Assembly (NCBI GenBank): GCA_039811165.1 | Contig: JBDHYC010000012.1 | Coordinates: forward strand, 19,090 to 83,089 | From: Chitinophagaceae bacterium | GTDB taxonomy: Bacteria; Bacteroidota; Bacteroidia; Chitinophagales; Chitinophagaceae | Direction: 5' to 3' | Length of the DNA: 64,000 bases | Shown here: in pieces, positions 12,628-24,022 of the stretch | Layout of the letters: each line of letters starts with the position of its first letter | Numbering within the stretch: position 1 is the first letter of the stretch | The notes under the pieces: generated by a model | What the model was told of the DNA's origin: nothing | The model's input: only the letters and a program-made list of their open reading frames with translations | Database searches by the model: none | Position numbers and translations under genes: made by a program

Positions 12628-14229
12628 ATGGATTGTAATGCTATACGAATTCCTTACCGGCAAACCGGTTTTTTCACCCGGACAGCCCTGGATTATATTG
12701 ACCAGGCGGATGCATTGAAATCTTTTTTCGTTCATCCTCCGTCTTTGCAGGGAATTCAAAAAGCAATTGAGGCAAGAAAAAGACATAAGGTGGACAGGGA
12801 AACACTGGTTCGGCACCTGAAAAGTCAATATCAATCCGTTTCTTCAGCAAAGGCAGTTCATGAAAATATAGAAGCATTACTTTCGGCTGATACTTTTACG
12901 GTCACCACTGCACATCAGCCCAATATTTTTACTGGCCCGTTATATTTTATTTATAAGATTCTGCATGCAATACGGCTGTCTGAGCATTTGAAAAAGCTAA
13001 TGCCGGAATATCGCTTTATCCCGGTTTACTATATGGGTTCCGAAGATGCTGACCTTGATGAGCTGGGACATATACACCTGGATGGACAAAAAATTGAATG
13101 GAACACCAAACAGACCGGTGCTGTGGGAAGAATGAAAATTGATAAAGAATTCATACAGATAATTTCCCGGATAGTAGGCTGTTTATCCGTCCTGCCCTTT
13201 GGTGAAGAGATTCTCTCCCTGGTAAAAAAGGCTTACAGGGAAAATGTTTCTGTCCAGGATGCGACATTTTATTTTGTTAATGAATTATTTGCTGAATACG
13301 GTTTGATTGTTCTCGTCGCAGACGATGCGTCATTAAAAAAGCCAATGACCGGGGTGTTTGAAGATGATCTCATGAATCAAAAGCCATCCCGGATCGTTGA
13401 AGGCACTGCCAAAGAACTGCAGGCAGCGGGATACAAGGTTCAGGCTCATCCCAGGGAAATCAATTTGTTTTATTTGAAAGATAATCTGAGGGAAAGAATA
13501 GTGGAGAAAAATTCACAATTCGCAATTCACAATTCACAATTGCAATTTAGTAAAGAGCAAATGTTGGAGGAGTTAGAAAAACATCCTGAACGTTTCAGCC
13601 CGAATGTGATTTTAAGAGGATTATTCCAGGAAACGATTTTACCCAATCTTGTTTTTATAGGTGGCGGTGGGGAACTGGCCTATTGGTTGCAGCTAAAAGA
13701 TCTTTTTCAGCAATACAGCGTACCCTTCCCGGTATTACTGCTCAGAAATTCGTTTTTGGTTGTTGAAAAGAAATGGCAGGACAAGATTCAGAAACTGGGT
13801 TTTACATCAGAAGATATTTTTTCAAAAGAGGAGGAACTCCTGAACCGACTTGTAAAAAGGGAGATTATAAATGATGTCGGGCTTAATGGAACTTATACCG
13901 AGACAGGGCAAATATATGATTCCGTAAAAAAGCAGGCTACAGCAATTGACAAAACATTATCTGCCCATGTTGATGCGCTGAAAACTCAGGCCTTGCACCG
14001 GCTTCATGAGCTTGAAAAAAAAATATTCCGTTCCGCAAAAAGAAAATTTACGGATCAGCAACGCATGATTGAATCTGTAAAAGGAAAATTATTTCCTTTG
14101 GATAGTTTGCAGGAACGCCAGGATAATTTTTTATCTTATTATGCCAAATGGGGGAAAGATTTTTTAAAAGAGCTGTATAAAAATTCGCTGACTACGGAAC
14201 AGGAATTTGTAGTGCTTTCCGAAAAGTGA
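12628..14229 (+). CDS. bshC: Bacillithiol biosynthesis cysteine-adding enzyme BshC
   Basis: 533 aa. The blocks HQPNIFTGPLYFIYKI, MGSEDADLDE and HPERFSPNVILRGLFQETILPN..GGGGELAYW match conserved B. subtilis BshC blocks as I recall them. Confidence 0.8.
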   Translation: MDCNAIRIPYRQTGFFTRTALDYIDQADALKSFFVHPPSLQGIQKAIEARKRHKVDRETLVRHLKSQYQSVSSAKAVHENIEALLSADTFTVTTAHQPNIFTGPLYFIYKILHAIRLSEHLKKLMPEYRFIPVYYMGSEDADLDELGHIHLDGQKIEWNTKQTGAVGRMKIDKEFIQIISRIVGCLSVLPFGEEILSLVKKAYRENVSVQDATFYFVNELFAEYGLIVLVADDASLKKPMTGVFEDDLMNQKPSRIVEGTAKELQAAGYKVQAHPREINLFYLKDNLRERIVEKNSQFAIHNSQLQFSKEQMLEELEKHPERFSPNVILRGLFQETILPNLVFIGGGGELAYWLQLKDLFQQYSVPFPVLLLRNSFLVVEKKWQDKIQKLGFTSEDIFSKEEELLNRLVKREIINDVGLNGTYTETGQIYDSVKKQATAIDKTLSAHVDALKTQALHRLHELEKKIFRSAKRKFTDQQRMIESVKGKLFPLDSLQERQDNFLSYYAKWGKDFLKELYKNSLTTEQEFVVLSEK

Positions 14230-14295
14230 TCCCGGTTGTTATAAAGTAACCTGTTTTTATTTTGTAGTTCAAAACGGTGATTTTTCAAAAAAAAT

Positions 14296-14385
14296 TTACT
14301 TTTTGTCTTGATACAAAAAGTAACAAAAAAATCAAGGCAAAACATCAGAAGTCTGGAAAATTGAGAAGACTGTTTGTTTTGCCTT
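14296..14385. repeat. Two strong hairpins in the bshC-CRISPR intergenic region
   Basis: The first has a perfect 11-bp stem, TTACTTTTTGT(14296-14306)/ACAAAAAGTAA(14313-14323). The second has an 11-bp stem, AAGGCAAAACA(14334-14344)/TGTTTTGCCTT(14375-14385), with inner AGTCT/AGACT pairing. Confidence 0.7.
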
Positions 14386-14531
14386 TGAGCAGTTCAGGTG
14401 TGGGATCGGCGCAGATATTCAATATTTTATTTTTAGAATTTTTATATTGAAAGGAGGGAATGCTGTACCTGGCCCTAAGCCTAACAAGCCGCCCTTATTT
14501 TATTATTTTTAAAATTTGACAAAAGCCCTGC

Positions 14532-14592
14532 TGTGAATTGATTTGCTTTCTCCCGAAGGCTTTCGGATTATGTGGCTTAACTCTTTAACAAT
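14532..14592 (+). repeat. Degenerate solitary CRISPR repeat (D1) with an internal hairpin insertion
   Basis: The sequence is TGTGAattgATTTGCTTTC + tcccgaaggctttcgga + TTATGTgGCTTAaCTCTTTAACAAt. Both flanks align to the 47-nt repeat. The central AAATTTTC is replaced by a CCGAA/TTCGG hairpin. Confidence 0.8.
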
Positions 14593-14625
14593 GGTAATTA
14601 AAACTTATTAATTAGTTTTACAATT

Positions 14626-14889
14626 ATGATTATTGATGCCAGAACAGTAAATTTTTTAAAAAAATTCTCAACCGAGAATGTTTATTTCGCATCCTCATTC
14701 CATGATGTATATTTTAAATGGGATATTAAAGAAAGGAAATATTACCAAAAGTTTAGGGGAATGGAAGAGACGCCTGTACAAAAAGGCAGCGATTTGCTTA
14801 TGGAGGCTATTTTGGACAGAAATGAAATTACAGAAGAGGAATACGAATCAGGTAGTAATTTAGTGTCAAGAGATAGGATTTGGCATTAA
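14626..14889 (+). CDS. Hypothetical 87-aa protein occupying the interval between two degenerate CRISPR repeats
   Basis: This ORF is in the track, is AT-rich and has an acidic C-terminal half. I recognise no family. Its stop codon (14887-14889) abuts the next repeat remnant. Confidence 0.45.
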   Translation: MIIDARTVNFLKKFSTENVYFASSFHDVYFKWDIKERKYYQKFRGMEETPVQKGSDLLMEAILDRNEITEEEYESGSNLVSRDRIWH

Positions 14890-15020
14890 TTGATAATTTG
14901 GTTTGCTTTCAAATTTTATGCTTGTCCGTCCGAAGCGATGCGAAGGCGGATAGCTTAGCTCTCATATCCCGACAGAATCGTCGGGAAGATTTGCCCGCCT
15001 GCATGACGCAGTCGGGCAGG
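14889..15020 (+). repeat. Disrupted CRISPR repeat remnants (D2) with inserted hairpin sequences
   Basis: aTTGaTAATTTGgtttGCTTTCAAATTTT-ATG (14889-14920) is followed by a 30-nt insert. Next comes TAGCTTAGCTCT (14951-14962, repeat positions 28-39), then a 58-nt insert. That insert contains the hairpins TCCCGAC/GTCGGGA (14967-14986) and GCCCGCCTGC/GCAGTCGGGC (14993-15017). Confidence 0.8.
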
Positions 15021-16746
15021 CTTTCAAATTTTCATGTAGCTTAGCTCTTTAACAACCTTTATTAATAATTTTAATAGTAAGAAAAAGTTGTGATTTGCTT
15101 TCAAATTTTCATGTAGCTTAGCTCTTTAACAACTTGGCAATCAATACGGCTGTGGCTGAAGCTGTTGTGATTTGCTTTCAAATTTTCATGTAGCTTAGCT
15201 CTTTAACAACGAATTGATCTCTCCACTCCCTTTAGGGGATGTTGTGATTTGCTTTCAAATTTTCATGTAGCTTAGCTCTTTAACAACCGGCTATTATCAA
15301 TCTATATGACATACACGGTTGTGATTTGCTTTCAAATTTTCATGTAGCTTAGCTCTTTAACAACAGAACCCTCTTTACAATGCACAGCAGTTTGTGTTGT
15401 GATTTGCTTTCAAATTTTCATGTAGCTTAGCTCTTTAACAACAATTACTGCTCCCGTTCCTTCACCGGAATGGTTGTGATTTGCTTTCAAATTTTCATGT
15501 AGCTTAGCTCTTTAACAACGCCAATAACGGCAAGGTTAATTACCCCTGCGTTGTGATTTGCTTTCAAATTTTCATGTAGCTTAGCTCTTTAACAACCTTC
15601 CTGTACCCTGCAACCCATCTACACAAGTTGTGATTTGCTTTCAAATTTTCATGTAGCTTAGCTCTTTAACAACGTCGGCTTCATCAAATGTTAGCACCAA
15701 TGGTTGTGATTTGCTTTCAAATTTTCATGTAGCTTAGCTCTTTAACAACTAATTGCAGGCTGCATGGTGCTTGGGTTGGTTGTGATTTGCTTTCAAATTT
15801 TCATGTAGCTTAGCTCTTTAACAACCTACCGGTGTCAATTAGCACTAATATATCAGTTGTGATTTGCTTTCAAATTTTCATGTAGCTTAGCTCTTTAACA
15901 ACTTATTTAATAATTGTTTTTCTTTTTTCAATGTTGTGATTTGCTTTCAAATTTTCATGTAGCTTAGCTCTTTAACAACAATAATAATCTCGGACTATTT
16001 ACTTGAGTGTTGTGATTTGCTTTCAAATTTTCATGTAGCTTAGCTCTTTAACAACTGCGTTGTTTGGGATTACGAATGGATAAAAGTTGTGATTTGCTTT
16101 CAAATTTTCATGTAGCTTAGCTCTTTAACAACTATAAAATATCTACCATCTTGAAATTGAAGTTGTGATTTGCTTTCAAATTTTCATGTAGCTTAGCTCT
16201 TTAACAACAGCGTTGACGTTAACTATCGTTAATGTATCGTTGTGATTTGCTTTCAAATTTTCATGTAGCTTAGCTCTTTAACAACCAAAATAAAACAATT
16301 ATCAAATGCAAAGGAGTTGTGATTTGCTTTCAAATTTTCATGTAGCTTAGCTCTTTAACAACTTGTAATATCCGTGAACAATCAGCTTTATGTTGTGATT
16401 TGCTTTCAAATTTTCATGTAGCTTAGCTCTTTAACAACCCACCGGAAAAAACAGGCAAGCGATAAGCAGTTGTGATTTGCTTTCAAATTTTCATGTAGCT
16501 TAGCTCTTTAACAACAGAAACAAAGAAAGCGTATGATGCAATACGGTTGTGATTTGCTTTCAAATTTTCATGTAGCTTAGCTCTTTAACAACGGAGTTGA
16601 TACCATTCCTGCAATGCTAACAGTTGTGATTTGCTTTCAAATTTTCATGTAGCTTAGCTCTTTAACAACAAAAGACCTATCAATGCTCCTATTCCTGTTG
16701 TTGTGATTTGCTTTCAAATTTTCATGTAGCTTAGCTCTTTAACAAC
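15021..16746 (+). CRISPR. CRISPR array: one 5'-truncated repeat, 22 identical 47-nt repeats and 22 spacers (type II-C, Bacteroidetes 47-nt class)
   Basis: The repeat is GTTGTGATTTGCTTTCAAATTTTCATGTAGCTTAGCTCTTTAACAAC, first at 15087-15133 and last at 16700-16746. The period is ~77 nt with unique 29-31-nt spacers. The truncated copy (repeat positions 12-47) is at 15021-15056. The strand is assigned from tracrRNA anti-repeat complementarity. Confidence 0.98.
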
Positions 16747-16804
16747 AGCTTATAGGCAAAACCTTGATAATACGGTATTTGAGCTGGGTTTTACAATCAA
16801 AAAA

Positions 16805-16829
16805 ATGGGTTTGACGACCCATTTTTTTA
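16805..16829 (+). terminator. Intrinsic terminator downstream of the last repeat
   Basis: The stem is ATGGGT(16805-16810)/ACCCAT(16817-16822), followed by T7 and preceded by an A-run, so it is potentially bidirectional. Confidence 0.65.
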
Positions 16830-16916
16830 TTCCTACCCCTTTTTCATATCCTTTCAACCAAAAAGAATCCAAGCCCCAACGGGGCAATCTGTTTATAGAA
16901 AATTGTAAATTCAAAC

Positions 16917-16939
16917 CCCGGCTCCGTAGGAGCCGCCTG
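16917..16939. repeat. REP-like hairpin upstream of the Y1 transposase gene
   Basis: CCCCGGCTCCGTAGGAGCCGCCTG, with stem GGCTCC/GGAGCC. Its flank GCCGCCTG is the inverse of the CAGGCGGC flank seen on the downstream REPs. Confidence 0.75.
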
Positions 16940-16959
16940 AATCATAAAGCTACCTGCCA

Positions 16960-17421
16960 ATGGCTAATACATTTTCACAAATCTACCTGCAATTTGTTTT
17001 TGCAGTGAAAGGGCGCCAGAATCTTATAGAAAAGAAGAATAAGGAAGAACTCCATAAATACATCACCGCCCTGGTACAAAACCGAAATGCCAAAATGCTG
17101 GCGATTCATTGTATGCCTGATCATACGCATATTTTTGTTGGGTTCAAACCCTCAGTTCTCATTTCAGATTTTATCAAAGAAATTAAAGTTGAGAGCAATG
17201 AATTTATCAACAGTAAAAAGTGGATTAAAGGCAGGTTCAGTTGGCAGGAGGGCTATGGGGTATTTTCCTATTCTCATTCACATATTGACCGGGTGGTAAA
17301 ATATGTGCTCAACCAGGAAGCCCATCACTATAAAAAGCCTTTCCGCCAGGAATATCTTGAATTACTTAAACGCTTTGAAATTCCTTTTGAAGAAAAATAT
17401 CTTTTTGATTTTTTGGATTGA
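16960..17421 (+). CDS. IS200/IS605-family Y1 HUH transposase-like protein, probable REP-associated tyrosine transposase (RAYT)
   Basis: 153 aa with HUH motif PDHTHIFVG and catalytic-Tyr helix VVKYVLNQEAHH. It is a single gene with no tnpB, flanked on both sides by GCTCC-N3-GGAGC hairpins. Confidence 0.85.
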   Translation: MANTFSQIYLQFVFAVKGRQNLIEKKNKEELHKYITALVQNRNAKMLAIHCMPDHTHIFVGFKPSVLISDFIKEIKVESNEFINSKKWIKGRFSWQEGYGVFSYSHSHIDRVVKYVLNQEAHHYKKPFRQEYLELLKRFEIPFEEKYLFDFLD

Positions 17422-17429
17422 TATGCAGG

Positions 17430-17946
17430 AAGCTCCACCGGAAACTAATCCAGCTATCTGATACAGGTTAAAAATATGGCACACCTACGTGATCGGTGTT
17501 GTATAAACAGGCGGCTCCGAAGGAGCCTTTGTCCTCTTATTTCATTTGGGCTACAAACACACAGCTCCTCCGGAGCCCGATTCAGCTATCTGTTACAGAT
17601 TATAAATACAGCGCTCCTACGGAGCGTAACGGTTTTGTCATATAAATTGCAATTGATGTACAGGCGGCTCCGATGGAGCCTTTGTCCTCTTATTTCGTCC
17701 GGGCTACAAACACGCAGCTCCTACGGAGCGTAACCCTGTAATTTGTTAACGTTTATAAACGTGATGCTCCTACTGAGCTTTGCATTTCTGTATTAAGAAG
17801 CAGATCGAAATGATTTCAATAGATGTGCAGGGGGCTCCGATGGAGCCTCGATCTCCTTATATTATCGGGGCTACAAACACGCAGCTCCTCCGGAGCCTGA
17901 TCCAGCTATCTGTTACAGTTTAAGATCACGACGCTCCTCCGGAGCA
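17430..17946. repeat. Cluster of about 10 REP hairpins (GCTCC-N3-GGAGC) arranged in three composite 70-120-bp units
   Basis: Hairpins lie at about 17432, 17513-17527, 17564-17576, 17612-17626, 17665-17680, 17717-17729, 17763-17778 (degenerate), 17833-17847, 17884-17896 and 17933-17945. The repeated linker is GGGCTACAAACAC...AGCTATCTGTTACAG. Confidence 0.9.
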
Positions 17947-17971
17947 TATCACAGCCTGGCTAAATAGTCTA

Positions 17972-18346
<375 letters not shown>

Positions 18347-18410
18347 TCACAGACCTGGTAGCTGTAACCGGCTGGCTGATTATTTTATTTTCCATATATG
18401 GTGATTCCAT

Positions 18411-19343
18411 TCATTCAAGGGTAGGGTATAAAATCTTTCTTGTTGTGCCTTCAAAACATTTTGCAAGTGATGCGGTGGTTCGCTGCACCGCATTCATCAT
18501 CGGGCTTTTTTCTCCGTTTATTTTTACATCCATTGCCGGGATCTCCAATAACATTTTTTTCATGGAGGGTGTCATTTCCAAAAATCTTCCATTATTTCGG
18601 ATGATCTGATATACTACCATATCCACATAAGGACGATAAGGTTCCATGATGTCGTCTGCTAAACAATAAGCATTGTATTGATTGCGGTGATGAATTCCGA
18701 GAGTTGGTAATAGTCCGCTTGCCACTAAGCTTCTTGCCACCAATGCTCTTAAAATTGCATAGCCATAATTCAAAAGATTATTGGGTGGCGGGCCGAAACG
18801 TTCTCTCCGGAATTCCAATTCTTCCGGAAAAATTCGTTTCCAATAATAAGCAGCGGCCTTAGCTTCATGATTTTCGCTGTCGCCGCTTTTTACATCAGTA
18901 GCATAGCGCAGAAGAATTTTGTTTTCTGTTCTTTGCCTGTTTAGCAATGCAGCCTGGTTTTCTATTTTGGAAATAATGGTTTGTTGCCATAATTGTTTTT
19001 TCAGCGGAACAGTGGCATCTATCTGCGCCTGGAATTTTTGGCTTTGAAGTGTATTACCATCAAGGCTTAGTAACATGCCTGCAGGGTGGTGGGTATTATC
19101 GCAGGTGATGACGGCGCTGTTGTTTGCTAATAGTTTTGCGAGTAATGCCTGCGTGATGGTGACCTGTTTATGATCGAGGATAAGCAGCCCAATATCTTCA
19201 ATGGGAATCGTTTTGGGTTCGGGTTTTATTTCTTCCTTTCCTTCAGGCAGGGTAACAGCAATGGCGGGAACTTCGACTACGAGTTGTTCGTTGGCGGTTT
19301 TGAGATAAGCGGGGTTACCAAAATATAGGGTTCGCTTTATCAC
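18411..19343 (-). CDS. cas1: CRISPR-associated endonuclease Cas1 (type II)
   Basis: 310 aa starting MIKRTLYFGNPAYL. Conserved GxHH (LGIHHRNQ) and acidic motifs are present. It lies adjacent to cas9 and cas2. Confidence 0.95.
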   Translation of the reverse strand: MIKRTLYFGNPAYLKTANEQLVVEVPAIAVTLPEGKEEIKPEPKTIPIEDIGLLILDHKQVTITQALLAKLLANNSAVITCDNTHHPAGMLLSLDGNTLQSQKFQAQIDATVPLKKQLWQQTIISKIENQAALLNRQRTENKILLRYATDVKSGDSENHEAKAAAYYWKRIFPEELEFRRERFGPPPNNLLNYGYAILRALVARSLVASGLLPTLGIHHRNQYNAYCLADDIMEPYRPYVDMVVYQIIRNNGRFLEMTPSMKKMLLEIPAMDVKINGEKSPMMNAVQRTTASLAKCFEGTTRKILYPTLE

Positions 19344-19451
19344 AGGATGATGGGTTTCTAAGGATAAAACGAAGAATGAGGGGATTTATTTTCTGTTATT
19401 TCCAAAGGGTTGCTTACCTTTTCATCGGCTTCTTTAAAGGAGTTAAAGACG

Positions 19452-22400
19452 TTAATTGTTTTTTGAGGGAGAAATGTTGCCGAGGCGGTCAACTTCCTTC
19501 CATTTAATTTCGCCGAGCAGAGAAATTTCAAAATCTTCATCCTCAATCAGAAAATTCCAGTTGTTACGACTTAAACCCAAGAGAGGAACAGGATTCTTAT
19601 CATTGATTACTGAGGACTCAGTTTTGTATTCTTCAATTTGCAATTTGAGCCTTTCAGCAAGATCGGAAGACGAATGTTGTTTTATAAGTTCAATCCGTTT
19701 ATCGAAATCATAAAGACGTTTTTCGAAGTCTTTATTCCTATCTGATGTATTGTTTATGTTTTCATTGGGAGTAATTTCTGGAATATCAAACTGTTTTTCG
19801 AATGGGCTTAATATCTTGCTCTTAGTTTGTTTAATAGATTTATCAATGTCCCCCTTTGCTCTCGATTCTAGATGACATTGTAGCATTATTTTGTTTCCAG
19901 TATAATGAAATTGTGTAATTCTGTATAACCTTTTTATCTGAAACTCTATTTCATTTATCTTCTCAAGTTCCGTATCATCGTTTAAAACAAAGACTTTTTG
20001 CCCCACTTTTAAAAGTTTTTTATCAGCATAATGATTGTATTCTGGGTAATACTCGCTGATAAGCCGATCTATTTCAAATTTGCTATTCTTTTTATACATC
20101 TTACCCAAATCAGTGGAAGCTATTGGTATCATTATTCGTTCTATCTTATCGTTATTAACATGTTGCAAGAATGCTGCATAAGGTAAGGAGCCGGCAGCTG
20201 AATAATAATTATTTTTGTAGTCATGTTTTGATTGATAATTGATTCGTTGTTTGACAATTTTTCCTGCGGTAGTTCTTATCCGAACGTGCCGTATTTCATT
20301 GCCTTGATGATCTTTTGGTTTCAGAATATTCTGTTGTTTTGAAATCAACTCTTGTATATCATGGTCAACAATATCATTAATGTATTTTTTTGCATCTTCT
20401 AAACTTACTCTTTCGGCAAAGAAAAATTCGTCTTTCCCGGTTTTAAATTTCCACTTTCCATCGTAAGTTCTTATTGGCTTATGTTGTTCATCCCGCTCAA
20501 CGTCTTTTAATTTAGCCAAAAATGTTTGCTTATAAAGTGTTGTTCGGATACTGTCACCTTTTGCAATTTTAGAAATTTTGCTTCCATTTTTGTCCAAAAC
20601 GTAATGCCCATTTATATCTTTTAAATAAACAAGCCTCCCTCTGCTACGAACAGTTTTATAAGTCCGTTTTAATATTTTATCTTTTTGGTAGTTTACTATC
20701 AACACCGAGTTTTCAATACTTTGTATTAATGCCTGGGAATTGAAGTTTTCGTATGGCATAACGGTAAACTGTCCTTTTTTTTGTTCCTGCCATTCATACA
20801 TAATTTTGAGCAAACGTTCCCGGTAACTAGCGTTGGTTGGTATCAAAGTTAGTACCGCAGCATCAATGGCATGGTGGGTATGCTTATTACGGTTTTTAAT
20901 TTCATCTTCTTCCTGGAAGCCATATATTTTACGAAAATCGGCAGTGACAATTCCCTTTTGCACTTTTACTCTATTGCTATATACTTTCTTTTCAAATGAT
21001 TCATTTTTGGTGGATTTGAAATATGTGCTTAAAAATTCCCGGGCATATTTTGAAATCATTTGTGTATCGGTGAGCTGTCTGCGAACCCAACTTTCTTTAA
21101 TTTCCTCGCAGGTAAAACGCTCTATTTTATCTGTCCAGTAGTCGAGGTGCATTTTGAAGTAGAGCTTGCTTTGGATGCGTTTATTTTTGTTTTCTTCGTC
21201 TTCCCCCGGTTTAGCTTTTTTATTCTCTTCATATAGTGTTTCGTAATGCTCTTTCAGTTCAATCCAGTTTTTAAGTCTTGGCTCAATGGCAGTACCCCAG
21301 CCCTCTTTATCTTTTGAGTAATTATCACATTGAGTTGGAAATTGGTTTTTCTTTTTATCACGATTATACCTGGCATAGCACACGGTTTGATTAGCCATGG
21401 TATTATCTGGTAATAAACTGCGGGGAATAGTGTGTTCAATATCAATTTCATTGGAAAATAGCTGGGTAATAGAAATCATTTTACCGGTGTACATGCACAT
21501 ACCTTTCTGCTCCATCCAAAGCTCATAGCGTTTTACCGCATCTTTTTGTTTAAGTATGTAGTCCCTTGTAGGTATCTCTTTCTCCTTTCCACTCTTTTCA
21601 TCTTTTATTTTGGTATTACCCAATATCTGTTCATTCCATAACTCAAAGTCTGCTATCCGATCATCTATGGTAATTTGAATATTTTCTTTTACTTTAAATT
21701 CTTCTAAAAACTTTCGAAAGAGGTCTCTTTTATTTTCACGATCTCGCTGATATCTCTCTATAGCAATTCGTTTGTTGTTATCATTCAATTCTCGGGCTAC
21801 TTCGATAACAATTTCAGTTTCTTCATCAATCTCGTCTTTTAATATCAATTCATTTAATAACTTCCTTAAAACGCAGAGAGCTTTATTAAACATTGGATTT
21901 TTAATACTGTCAATGAGTGGCACTGCAAGGATTTTCTTACTAGTATTTTTATCAATGATAGGAGGCTTGTATTTATTCTTCTGTTTGGAGTGGTGATATA
22001 ATAAGGTTGTATCAATGTTTACTTTCTGTTTCTTAAATTCTTTTTGAAGGATTTCATCCAGAGTAGGTGGCTGACAATAAGATCGTGTAGCATCTTCAAA
22101 AAATTGCTGGTAATGGCTTTTTACTGCATCAAAAAAAATATTTTTTTCGTCCTCGGATTTAGTATTCCATGTTTTTTCGCCAAAATGTTTGGTACAGGCA
22201 TTCTGTATATCATTCTCATCATCTTTTTGTAAACGATATGTTGTGTCTTTATAAGCAAACTTTTCACGGTTTTCTAAGCCTTTCCAGGCATCTATAAGGC
22301 TATTTGAAATGGTAGCGATAGTTTTGTCCCGGTTGTAAGCTGAATTAGCTTCTTTTATAGCAAGAAAGATATTTTCTTTTTCACTTTCCCAATTTTGACC

Positions 22401-22802
22401 AAGTAATTCAGGCATTTTTGCTAACAGTACAGCTTCATTATATAGATGACCTTTGCTTAAGAATGGGATAATTTTACTAATTGCTTTTATACTTAAATCT
22501 GAGAAGGATGAACCAATACTTTTCTTCAATTCAACGAACGGGTTATATATTTTTCCTTTTTTTGTTGTCTCATCTGGTATCATTAATTTTTGAACGGAAA
22601 AATATTTCAGGTAGGGTTCATCAAAACTGTAGAGTGCATGCCACAAATCAAGAACCGAGTATTTCTTAGCGATTATTTTAGGTGCTATTTGATGTTTAGT
22701 ATCATTTTTTGCAGCACCGCCAATTATATAATTATGTAATTGATTTAATTGCGTTTCAATTATTTCTCCAAAAATATCAATCAACCCTTTGCAAATTGGC
22801 AT
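19452..22802 (-). CDS. cas9: Cas9, C-terminal 1116-aa fragment (REC remainder, RuvC-II, HNH, RuvC-III, PI domain)
   Basis: It carries RuvC-II IVIEVAREL, HNH IDIEHTIPRS...N and RuvC-III HHAIDAAV. This frame is actually open upstream to nt 22916, through the A12 tract. Confidence 0.95.
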   Translation of the reverse strand: MPICKGLIDIFGEIIETQLNQLHNYIIGGAAKNDTKHQIAPKIIAKKYSVLDLWHALYSFDEPYLKYFSVQKLMIPDETTKKGKIYNPFVELKKSIGSSFSDLSIKAISKIIPFLSKGHLYNEAVLLAKMPELLGQNWESEKENIFLAIKEANSAYNRDKTIATISNSLIDAWKGLENREKFAYKDTTYRLQKDDENDIQNACTKHFGEKTWNTKSEDEKNIFFDAVKSHYQQFFEDATRSYCQPPTLDEILQKEFKKQKVNIDTTLLYHHSKQKNKYKPPIIDKNTSKKILAVPLIDSIKNPMFNKALCVLRKLLNELILKDEIDEETEIVIEVARELNDNNKRIAIERYQRDRENKRDLFRKFLEEFKVKENIQITIDDRIADFELWNEQILGNTKIKDEKSGKEKEIPTRDYILKQKDAVKRYELWMEQKGMCMYTGKMISITQLFSNEIDIEHTIPRSLLPDNTMANQTVCYARYNRDKKKNQFPTQCDNYSKDKEGWGTAIEPRLKNWIELKEHYETLYEENKKAKPGEDEENKNKRIQSKLYFKMHLDYWTDKIERFTCEEIKESWVRRQLTDTQMISKYAREFLSTYFKSTKNESFEKKVYSNRVKVQKGIVTADFRKIYGFQEEDEIKNRNKHTHHAIDAAVLTLIPTNASYRERLLKIMYEWQEQKKGQFTVMPYENFNSQALIQSIENSVLIVNYQKDKILKRTYKTVRSRGRLVYLKDINGHYVLDKNGSKISKIAKGDSIRTTLYKQTFLAKLKDVERDEQHKPIRTYDGKWKFKTGKDEFFFAERVSLEDAKKYINDIVDHDIQELISKQQNILKPKDHQGNEIRHVRIRTTAGKIVKQRINYQSKHDYKNNYYSAAGSLPYAAFLQHVNNDKIERIMIPIASTDLGKMYKKNSKFEIDRLISEYYPEYNHYADKKLLKVGQKVFVLNDDTELEKINEIEFQIKRLYRITQFHYTGNKIMLQCHLESRAKGDIDKSIKQTKSKILSPFEKQFDIPEITPNENINNTSDRNKDFEKRLYDFDKRIELIKQHSSSDLAERLKLQIEEYKTESSVINDKNPVPLLGLSRNNWNFLIEDEDFEISLLGEIKWKEVDRLGNISPSKNN

Positions 22803-22888
22803 AGTAGCTGCTGAGTGATCGTCTTTATAGTTGTATTGGTGTTCATTTTTTAGCTGTTTGTCAAGAAACTTTTTAATATCAGCAAACT

Positions 22889-23896
22889 TTACATTTTTTT
22901 TTTTTGAAGGAAGAAATTAGTATAGAGTTTATCCTTAATTTCCTTTGGCAGAAATTCCATGCTACCTGGAGCATTATTGTATTTAATTGTATTGATAAAC
23001 TGCCAGGCTCTGGAGATTTCAAAAAGTGGATGAGATACCGGGCACCTGGGGCGATCTTTTTCTAAAGTACACCTACCAATATTTCCTTTTTGACTTCTTA
23101 AGGGGCGTTGCCAGATAATTGATTTCCAGAATTGTTGCACTAAAGAATCTTGATAAGTACCCATTGCATTACGGCTAATGTCAAATTCTTGGGCTTTGCA
23201 GAGCTTTTCCAGTTCAGCCCTGTATTCTTTGCGAAGCGGATATTGATTTCTTGCCCTTTTCCCCTTGTCTAAAAATTCTTTTTTCAGCGCTTCAGCAATG
23301 GTTCTATTATTTTGTAGTGCTTGTGCAAAACCGTCTGCTTCTCTTCTTTCCAATTGCTTTTTTGTTTCGATATCTTTTTTGGCTTCGTCAATATTGAGTT
23401 CATCTGTATCAGATTCTCCAATATTTTTGTAACCTCTCCTTTGCACTAAATGATAAAGTGCCCGTCCCAATTCTTGCTTACTTACTTTGTTATCTAAAGC
23501 GAAGACTCTTAATTCGTATGGATTTTTATAATTTCTGCCATTTTGATAAGTAAAATCGCATGCCAGCCATTTTTGAAATAACCCGTTTTCGGGAAATTTT
23601 TGTAACTGACCTTTTTTATAGTTGCTCCAAATTTCAAGCTCATTCTTTTGTAATGGAGTATAATCATTTTTAATAAGAACTTTGAGCAGCTCCCATTTTC
23701 TGTATTTACGTGCCTGTATTAATCTCCTTTTGGATCGAGCTTCTCTTCTTTCTTTAGCGGGGGAAGTATATCCTCCAGTACCTTTTACCATACCAGACTC
23801 AAAGGTTATCACGCCTGTTTTGATACTGTTATCTTCATTTCTTAGTGCCCATCCGATTGATGAACTTCCCAAGTCTAGACCCAAAATTTTGTTCAT
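22889..23896 (-). CDS. cas9: Cas9, N-terminal 335-aa fragment (RuvC-I, Arg-rich bridge helix, start of REC)
   Basis: It starts MNKILGLDLGSSSIGWAL (RuvC-I Asp) and carries the bridge helix RREARSKRRLIQARKYRK. It ends ...FFLQKKKM*, immediately after the A12 run (22894-22905). Confidence 0.95.
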   Translation of the reverse strand: MNKILGLDLGSSSIGWALRNEDNSIKTGVITFESGMVKGTGGYTSPAKERREARSKRRLIQARKYRKWELLKVLIKNDYTPLQKNELEIWSNYKKGQLQKFPENGLFQKWLACDFTYQNGRNYKNPYELRVFALDNKVSKQELGRALYHLVQRRGYKNIGESDTDELNIDEAKKDIETKKQLERREADGFAQALQNNRTIAEALKKEFLDKGKRARNQYPLRKEYRAELEKLCKAQEFDISRNAMGTYQDSLVQQFWKSIIWQRPLRSQKGNIGRCTLEKDRPRCPVSHPLFEISRAWQFINTIKYNNAPGSMEFLPKEIKDKLYTNFFLQKKKM

Positions 23897-23931: not shown

Positions 23932-24022
23932 ACCGAAAGACAAATCACAACAAGGCTATAAGCCGCAGATTTACTTTCTGAGCGACTGCTTGAATAAAAT
24001 CGGTAGTCGCTAATTTTTTTTT
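23932..24022 (+). ncRNA. tracrRNA: tracrRNA (predicted), divergent from cas9
   Basis: The anti-repeat GAAAGaCAAATCACAAC (23934-23950) is complementary to repeat positions 1-16 with one bulged A. It is followed directly by the nexus-like AAGGCTATAAGCCG (GGCT/AGCC hairpin, 23952-23965). The terminator stem is AGCGACTGC(23981-23989)/GGTAGTCGCT(24002-24011) plus T9. The 5' end is approximate. Confidence 0.85.

Follow-up and report, generated by a model that had tools for sequence, protein, structure and literature searches.

How does a gene for an entire protein come to stand where a CRISPR array would hold a spacer, and what, if anything, does the gene do there? The question is raised by a 64,000-nucleotide (nt) stretch of DNA from a Chitinophagaceae bacterium (contig JBDHYC010000012.1, positions 19,090 to 83,089), here called the window. 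It carries a type II-C CRISPR locus, and at one end of the array an open reading frame (ORF) of 87 amino acids (aa), ORF87, lies between two degenerate repeats, D1 and D2. The protein is a relative of Tis1, the immunity protein against toxins of the Tas1 (Apk1) type. Such toxins kill by turning ATP and ADP into (p)ppApp; Tis1 binds and blocks them. We regard it as probable, with considerable room for doubt, that ORF87 is a functional orphan immunity gene of this family, that it arrived horizontally, and that it has been retained in a spacer slot at the old end of the array without any role in CRISPR.

The preliminary description of this locus did not recognise the protein, which can now be named: ORF87 is a Tis1-family immunity protein. 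It matches Pfam family PF24154 (Tis1 immunity) over residues 12-76, scoring 48 bits where the cutoff is 27 (E 1.4e-12), and phmmer aligns residues 13-76 with Tis1 itself, chain B of Protein Data Bank (PDB) entry 6OX6 (E 8.7e-7). An AlphaFold2 model of ORF87 was built from a 23-sequence family alignment (predicted local distance difference test, pLDDT, 81; predicted template-modelling score, pTM, 0.70). Searched with Foldseek, the model has a single significant match, again 6OX6_B, with probability 1.0, template-modelling (TM) scores of 0.65/0.74 and a root mean square deviation (rmsd) of 1.3 A. The conserved residues of the family are present, and in comparison with family members ORF87 is full length at both ends. 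The 6OX6 structure is the Tas1-Tis1 complex of Pseudomonas aeruginosa, in which Tas1 is a (p)ppApp synthetase toxin and Tis1 its immunity protein (PMC12691689, PMC10083569).

What such a protein is for can be read from the company that the family keeps. The family is small, with 25 representative clusters at E <= 1e-3 among 1.84 billion proteins. Two distant members lie on long contigs, and in both the gene immediately upstream is a Tas1 homologue, matching 6OX6_A at E 5e-55 and 6e-52. Because distant members directly follow Tas1 homologues, membership of the family predicts an immunity role.

ORF87 itself does not stand beside a Tas1-like toxin. Its neighbours are bshC upstream and the array downstream, and a tblastn search with the two Tas1 homologues turns up nothing resembling Tas1 in either the window or the 87 related loci (given here by number, L006 and so on). 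Because the window lacks such a toxin, ORF87 is an orphan immunity gene. No relative of it is found in viral contigs or in Joint Genome Institute (JGI) metagenome contigs, and the exact 47-nt repeat of its array is likewise not found in viral contigs.

The roles first suggested for the protein were different ones: an anti-CRISPR, a regulator, or a toxin-antitoxin (TA) module that makes the cell dependent on its array. These suggestions find no support. A small acidic protein within a CRISPR locus could, of course, be an anti-CRISPR, a Cas9 regulator or one half of an array-stabilising addiction module, and TA modules do occur in or beside II-C loci (ParDE in Flavobacterium columnare, PMC8092290; HigBA in L053). 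But ORF87 clearly belongs to another, characterised family, whose members elsewhere are paired with Tas1 toxins and not with CRISPR loci. It has no match in PADLOC or PHROG, no aca-like helix-turn-helix (HTH) gene, the usual neighbour of an anti-CRISPR gene on a mobile element, lies adjacent, and the search of the window and related loci found no toxin partner for it. A CRISPR-linked function is very improbable.

The place of the gene is as peculiar as it first seemed. The array contains 22 perfect 47-nt repeats, GTTGTGATTTGCTTTCAAATTTTCATGTAGCTTAGCTCTTTAACAAC, at 15087-16746, and its spacers are 29-31 nt long (22 measured: the first spacer and the 21 between perfect repeats). Upstream of these stand the three repeat-derived units described earlier, D1, D2 and a 5'-truncated repeat (Table 1); among units whose 3' end is intact, the last is the oldest in the working array. 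D1 holds a 5-nt insertion in its 5' flank and a 19-nt hairpin insert at its centre, and its 3' flank agrees with the repeat at 20 of 23 bases and retains the box TCTTTAAC (14582-14589). The interval between D1 and D2 is about 300 nt, outside the 29-31 nt of the spacers. As had been noted, ORF87 fills this interval; its TAA stop comes 5 nt ahead of the repeat-like part of D2 (14895). Over 14125-15056 the window is matched with 100% identity by five Logan metagenome contigs, drawn from different samples; past that stretch these contigs collapse the array, in the manner of short-read assembly. Because five independent contigs are identical, the D1-D2 arrangement is real and no accident of assembly.

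A single close relative of ORF87 was found, P0001, with 89% identity, on two short metagenome contigs (L006 and L007). There, too, the gene lies between repeat units. The counterpart of D1 in L006 is a near-intact repeat, which ends 9 nt before the ATG; behind the gene comes D2, with the same 30-nt insert, an intact 3' end and 2 differences in 73 nt. The interval is about 276 nt. Thus, in both cases the slot lies between repeats that are in register: in the window these are D1 and D2, and in L006 the near-intact repeat and D2. Window positions 14626-14962 correspond to L006 1801-2137, and the outer flank of L006 is dissimilar; the shared part is the repeat-framed cassette only.

This pair allows selection to be estimated. 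The two genes differ by 14 synonymous and 11 non-synonymous changes, which gives a ratio of non-synonymous to synonymous rates (dN/dS) of 0.14; the synonymous excess has a binomial p of 2e-5. Because dN/dS is 0.14 and the protein is full length relative to its relatives, ORF87 is, as far as sequence comparison can tell, selected cargo in a former spacer slot and not junk. The conservation and the low dN/dS contradict the earlier thought that it might be a meaningless insertion, and the two checks proposed at that time, for coding selection and for the same ORF at related loci, have come out in favour of a gene.

To see which end of the array this is, one must consider the locus as a whole. It has the type II-C set: cas9, cas1 and cas2 without csn2 or cas4 (Pfam, in the window), plus a tracrRNA (trans-activating CRISPR RNA) and an array. 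The closest relatives of its Cas1 have at most 81% identity, and by them the host is judged to belong to the Chitinophagaceae. The tracrRNA has homologues at the equivalent place upstream of cas9 in 14 relatives, and an anti-repeat upstream of cas9 has likewise been reported in Riemerella (PMC5006608). Its nexus variant AAGGCTATAAGCCG is shared with L014, most relatives having AAGGATTATTCCG instead. Because the plus strand of the array is complementary to the tracrRNA, it is the CRISPR RNA (crRNA) sense; because the cas genes lie at 17972-23896 on the minus strand, the end that holds ORF87 is cas-distal, as first described. In most relatives the flank beside the cas-proximal repeat is conserved; the distal end is where degenerate terminal repeats are found. 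In the II-C locus of Riemerella anatipestifer the leader adjoins cas2, and new spacers enter there (PMC5006608); in Flavobacterium II-C arrays, promoters encoded in the repeats drive transcription towards the variable end (PMC8092290, PMC10309648). Because the leader is cas-proximal and the crRNA sense is plus, the D1-D2 region is the old (trailer) end of the array and lies upstream for crRNA transcription. A palindrome in the trailer flank had been considered as an acquisition leader and was dropped; the cas-proximal flank is the one conserved in most relatives, which fits Riemerella (PMC5006608).

The locus has also suffered damage. Its cas9 is divided into ORFs of 335 and 1116 aa by a frameshift in an A13 run (22895-22907, minus strand); with the Cas9 of L014 as a tblastn query, the frame changes at residues 364-369. 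The identical split is present in independent Logan metagenome contigs. The split could mark a pseudogene, could act as a phase-variable switch, or could be overcome by slippage during transcription. Between the leader with its terminator and cas2 lies an insertion (16860-17960) that is absent from relatives, made up of a RAYT (REP-associated tyrosine transposase) gene and a cluster of repetitive extragenic palindromic (REP)-like hairpins.

Table 1. Features of the locus in the window, followed by related arrays with long non-spacer DNA (positions within the locus named)
Feature	Positions	Strand	Description
ORF87, orphan Tis1-family immunity gene	14626-14889	+	87 aa
Array-end flank	14288-14345		palindrome TTACTTTTTGTCTTGATACAAAAAGTAA; outer boundary, cas-distal end
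D1	14530-14592	+	5' flank 14530-14550, hairpin insert 14551-14569, 3' flank 14570-14592
AT-rich ORF leader	14593-14625	+	24-nt stretch absent from L006; TAnnTTTG-like box TAGTTTTA at 14613-14620
D2	14895-14962	+	repeat with 30-nt GC-rich insert (14921-14950) and mutated 3' end
5'-truncated repeat	15021-15056	+	perfect copy of repeat positions 12-47
Working array	15057-16746	+	30-nt first spacer, then 22 perfect repeats
Leader flank, cas-proximal	16747-16835		bidirectional terminator hairpin; conserved
RAYT (IS200-like Y1 transposase)	16960-17421		between array and cas2; Pfam
REP-like hairpin cluster, GGCTCC-NNN-GGAGCC	17426-17945		between array and cas2
cas2	17972-18346	-	Pfam
cas1	18411-19343	-	Pfam
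cas9	19452-23896	-	Pfam; split by frameshift
tracrRNA	about 23933-24022	+	divergent from cas9; anti-repeat CCGAAAGACAAATCACAAC, nexus AAGGCTATAAGCCG, terminator hairpin, T-run
L053	14130-14803		HigB(Gp49)/HigA module
L034	12995-13381		small protein
L071	8712-9122		small protein
L083	12766-13603		three small ORFs
L028	13752-14789		345-aa gene
L037			isolated 17-nt repeat half
L008	13990-14385		396-bp slot between two perfect repeats

Such damage invites another explanation, namely, that ORF87 is a neutral passenger, a gene that dropped into a decaying array end, that is unexpressed or useless, and that has simply not yet degraded. The frameshifted cas9 and the RAYT and REP cluster between leader and cas2 are what one might see in a locus on its way out; damage is seen in each of the three repeat units, D1, D2 and the truncated one; and in other relatives the same end of the array holds assorted unrelated DNA. 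A neutral passenger is not expected, however, to show a dN/dS of 0.14 (p = 2e-5), nor to remain intact and full length in two lineages that are 14% apart over the first 177 nt of the gene. Further, the 22 repeats downstream are perfect, which implies that the locus is not old wreckage. We consider neutrality unlikely, although it has to be taken seriously.

If the gene is functional, it must be expressed. ORF87 is co-oriented with crRNA transcription and lies directly behind a repeat. In the II-C arrays of Bacteroidota, promoters embedded in the repeats fire towards the leader (PMC8092290, PMC10309648). Across 47 related repeats, a TCTTT(G/A)AC box is found in the 3' half, 5-6 nt from the repeat end; this half is dispensable for pairing with the tracrRNA, and the box resembles the TTTG core of the Bacteroidota -7 element. 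Because promoters of this kind have been described for Bacteroidota II-C arrays and because D1 keeps its TCTTTAAC box, it is reasonable to propose that the repeat-embedded promoter of D1 drives ORF87, and the motif and its analogues make this plausible. The TAGTTTTA box in the AT-rich leader of the ORF may itself be a -7 element. A scan for sigma-70 promoters and terminators remained at chance level, with a model ill-suited to Bacteroidota.

Transcription from D1 might also have a defined end. Two strong GC-rich hairpins (14968-14985 and 14992-15020) precede the truncated unit, and the segment 14960-15022 folds at -31.5 kcal/mol (z = -4.9), a value equalled by 0 of 200 shuffles. The double hairpin is followed by CUUUCAAAUUUU, the U-rich start of the next unit, and is a candidate terminator or insulator of the ORF87 transcript.

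D1 might instead matter as RNA, either as the anti-repeat of a tracrRNA read from the minus strand or as a crRNA-like regulator in the manner of CreA or of small CRISPR-associated RNA (scaRNA). A minus-strand transcript would base-pair with each half of the repeat, forming a 6-bp stem and, past a bulge, a 10-bp stem, and a terminator-like hairpin lies on that strand at 14335-14393. The anti-repeat was attractive for this stem-bulge-stem and was dropped once the canonical tracrRNA, conserved in 14 relatives, was found upstream of cas9. Nor does the rest agree. On the minus strand the tail lacks a nexus and folds no better than shuffled sequence (z = -0.5); the counterpart of D1 in L006 is an ordinary repeat; for the 30 nt upstream of D1 there is no match elsewhere in the window; and a scan of the whole window gave no Rfam match. 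That D1 is an RNA element is scarcely credible. The spacers and the pseudo-spacer upstream of D1 have only chance-level matches of 15-19 nt in the related loci and the window.

The outer boundary of the array recurs elsewhere. The palindrome motif with its hairpin marks the distal array end in the window (14288-14393), in L025 (14837-14930) and in L030 (12250-12400); in the latter two it comes 40-90 nt past the last repeat, and the neighbouring genes differ. It may be an array-end element, or a promoter or terminator outside the array. Between this motif and D1, on the plus strand at 14452-14520, a Shine-Dalgarno-like AAAGGAGGGA precedes a mini-ORF of 19 codons (MLYLALSLTSRPYFIIFKI), which is probably noise.

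Hairpins in the terminal repeats recur as well. In L014 the repeat is cut after position 11, as in the window, and is preceded by related CCCGCCTG...CGGGCAGG hairpins, in three tandem copies; hairpin and truncated repeat together occupy 14992-15056 in the window and 12604-12740 in L014. The terminal repeat of L008 (about 14463-14530) has a perfect 20-nt palindrome at the repeat centre. Thus, GC-rich hairpins in terminal repeats are found in the window, L014 and L008. They were compared with the REPs of the neighbouring RAYT, and this origin was rejected, since the alignment scores are no better than those of shuffles; within the window, CGGGCAGG is not enriched.

How, then, did the gene arrive? 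Long DNA that is not spacer DNA proves to be no rarity at this end of such arrays. Among 30 related arrays with a visible distal end, seven hold it either inside the array or between the array and a distal repeat remnant (Table 1). In four of these seven (L028, L034, L071 and L083) the cargo ORFs point in the crRNA sense, as do those of the ORF87 loci (the window and L006/L007). The L034 and L071 proteins are homologous to each other in a C-terminal stretch of 60 aa only; a HicB-like label for them was not confirmed by Pfam, NCBIfam, PADLOC or the PDB.

Two slots suggest a route. The 396-bp slot of L008, on a 78-kb SPAdes contig, lies between two perfect repeats and begins and ends mid-codon in phage genes; it holds the last 80 codons of a toxin gene and the start of a morphogenesis gene. 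The slot at L007 385-1560 (1,176 bp) derives from the same phage region in the opposite orientation, starting within a MuF-type gene (CRCTVIQV...) and ending within a virion-morphogenesis gene; it is bounded by the intact 3' end of D2 and by a near-canonical repeat start (one base variant, at the contig end). An intact homologous module lies beside the array in L014 (12822-16431), consisting of a MuF toxin gene (384 aa), a gene of 68 aa and a morphogenesis gene (109 aa), and in a viral contig the MuF gene comes right after terminase and portal. The slots of L007 and L008 may be giant spacers, products of spacer-guided recombination or, in the case of L007, assembly chimeras. L007 is a de Bruijn contig (k=31), and identity between a 30-nt spacer and its protospacer might have joined unrelated pieces; L008 is less exposed to this artefact.

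By extension, ORF87 itself may have entered as an over-long spacer cut from a phage toxin-immunity module, installed by Cas1-Cas2 or by double recombination between spacer and phage, and domesticated afterwards. This is a claim about the route of arrival, and it is compatible with the explanation of ORF87 as an orphan immunity gene. Because Bacteroides is known to have (p)ppApp synthetase toxins linked to MuF (PMC12691689), a phage module is a plausible source. In L006, moreover, the 3' end of the upstream repeat is intact and the cargo begins right behind it, as it would in a spacer. Against this, no known adaptation complex inserts spacers of hundreds of bp; D2 does not begin, at its 5' end, as a clean repeat would; no relative of ORF87 is found among the viral contigs; and one complete gene with flanks of 9 nt and 0 nt would be improbable by chance, unless selection had a hand. 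The giant spacer is, on balance, quite unlikely. The general form of the idea, that the old ends of II-C arrays are sites of gene capture where adaptation or spacer-guided recombination installs fragments of hundreds to more than 1000 bp precisely between repeats, we consider equally doubtful. Were it true, a whole gene delivered in a giant spacer could be expressed from a repeat promoter and kept by selection, and the array would be a platform for defence cargo resembling an integron.

The orphan immunity gene remains the explanation that we prefer, and its history would run as follows. A piece of foreign DNA of roughly 276 bp would have arrived horizontally, its foreign origin being suggested by a GC content of 33%, against about 40% for housekeeping genes. 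It would have come to lie precisely between two repeats, in the old, cas-distal part of the array, where spacers count least. If crRNAs are made here from promoters within each repeat, running towards the cas genes, a gene placed just downstream of a repeat and in the same direction would inherit a ready promoter, and the GC-rich hairpins before the next unit would stop its transcript. The flanking repeats would later have decayed through hairpin insertions, an indel and substitutions, while selection kept the gene. Even without its toxin, the antidote could be a shield against neighbours, or against polymorphic toxins carried by phages, where these rely on a (p)ppApp enzyme. ORF87 would take no part in CRISPR immunity.

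Several facts weigh against this history. All 25 differences between ORF87 and the P0001 gene fall within the first 177 nt (14% divergence there), which complicates the reading of dN/dS; over the last 87 nt of ORF87 together with D2, 2 of 160 positions differ. This mosaic pattern points to a boundary within the gene, left by recent recombination or gene conversion. Because the lineage is rare (one other cluster above 40% identity among the 1.84 billion representatives), the case for selection comes from a single pairwise comparison. As to the promoter, the central insert of D1 moves the -33-like TTTG about 11 nt farther from the -7-like box, and that box, TCTTTAAC, agrees with TAnnTTTG in part only. 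The D1 promoter may be weak or dead; the TAGTTTTA box, nearer to the ATG, could conceivably serve in its place. The CRISPR locus has decayed, with its frameshifted cas9 and its RAYT insertion, and the cargo could be riding along in a locus that is dying out. Finally, we know of no Tas1-type attacker from the habitat of this organism.

The locus is nevertheless instructive, as it links immunity to interbacterial toxins with CRISPR, two layers of defence that are usually studied apart, and offers a concrete case in which a CRISPR repeat promoter may drive a gene for a protein. Non-spacer DNA turns up repeatedly at the old ends of these arrays, including a HigBA module, HTH proteins and fragments of phage genes. 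If the repeat-bounded fragments are real, they bear on how strictly II-C systems control spacer length and on how captured genes are domesticated; interest would rise sharply if the long inserts were both real and installed by adaptation. Should the fragments prove spurious, it would still be advisable to screen small ORFs at the decayed ends of arrays before labelling them junk or anti-CRISPR.

Among known proteins, the nearest is Tis1 of P. aeruginosa PA14 (PA14_01140, PDB 6OX6), which belongs to the same PF24154 family, has the same predicted fold and shares about 34% identity in the core, with 77 aa against the 87 of ORF87. Tis1 lies directly behind its toxin in a type VI secretion system (T6SS) locus, Tas1/Apk1 being a T6SS effector in PA14, whereas ORF87 lies, without a toxin, inside a CRISPR array in Chitinophagaceae. 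In being toxin-less, horizontally acquired and presumably protective, it resembles the orphan immunity genes of Bacteroidales, including those of acquired interbacterial defence (AID) and recombinase-associated AID (rAID) clusters. AID clusters, however, are multi-gene arrays on mobile elements, and rAID clusters have a tyrosine recombinase and intergenic repeats of their own. ORF87 is a single gene framed by CRISPR repeats with no recombinase next to it, and the only mobile-element gene nearby is the Y1 RAYT, 2 kb away.

Degenerate repeats that frame non-spacer sequence at a CRISPR locus are also the mark of CreTA mini-arrays. There, CreA is a short crRNA-like RNA with a pseudo-spacer that partly matches the promoter of the toxin; here, the interval is a 264-nt protein gene, and neither toxin nor matching target is found in the window. 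The promoter invoked for ORF87 has its models in the repeat-embedded promoters of Neisseria meningitidis and Flavobacterium, where transcription starts at the 3' end of the repeat and runs towards the leader. To our knowledge, such promoters are known for crRNA units only, and none is known to drive an mRNA.

The preliminary description knew of no earlier account of such an arrangement, which is true only in part. Coding DNA in or beside a Bacteroidota array has precedents, IS256 in the II-C array of F. psychrophilum (PMC10309648) and ParDE in the F. columnare locus (PMC8092290), and these arrays stay transcribed from repeat-encoded promoters; a gene-sized insertion is therefore already known. 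But IS256 is a transposase gene with target-site duplications and ParDE is a TA pair outside the array, whereas ORF87 is not mobile, occupies a spacer slot and points the same way as the crRNAs. An orphan Tis1-family immunity gene in the trailer of a type II-C array is, in sum, a new variation on two familiar themes: immunity genes that lack their toxins, and DNA inserted into CRISPR arrays.

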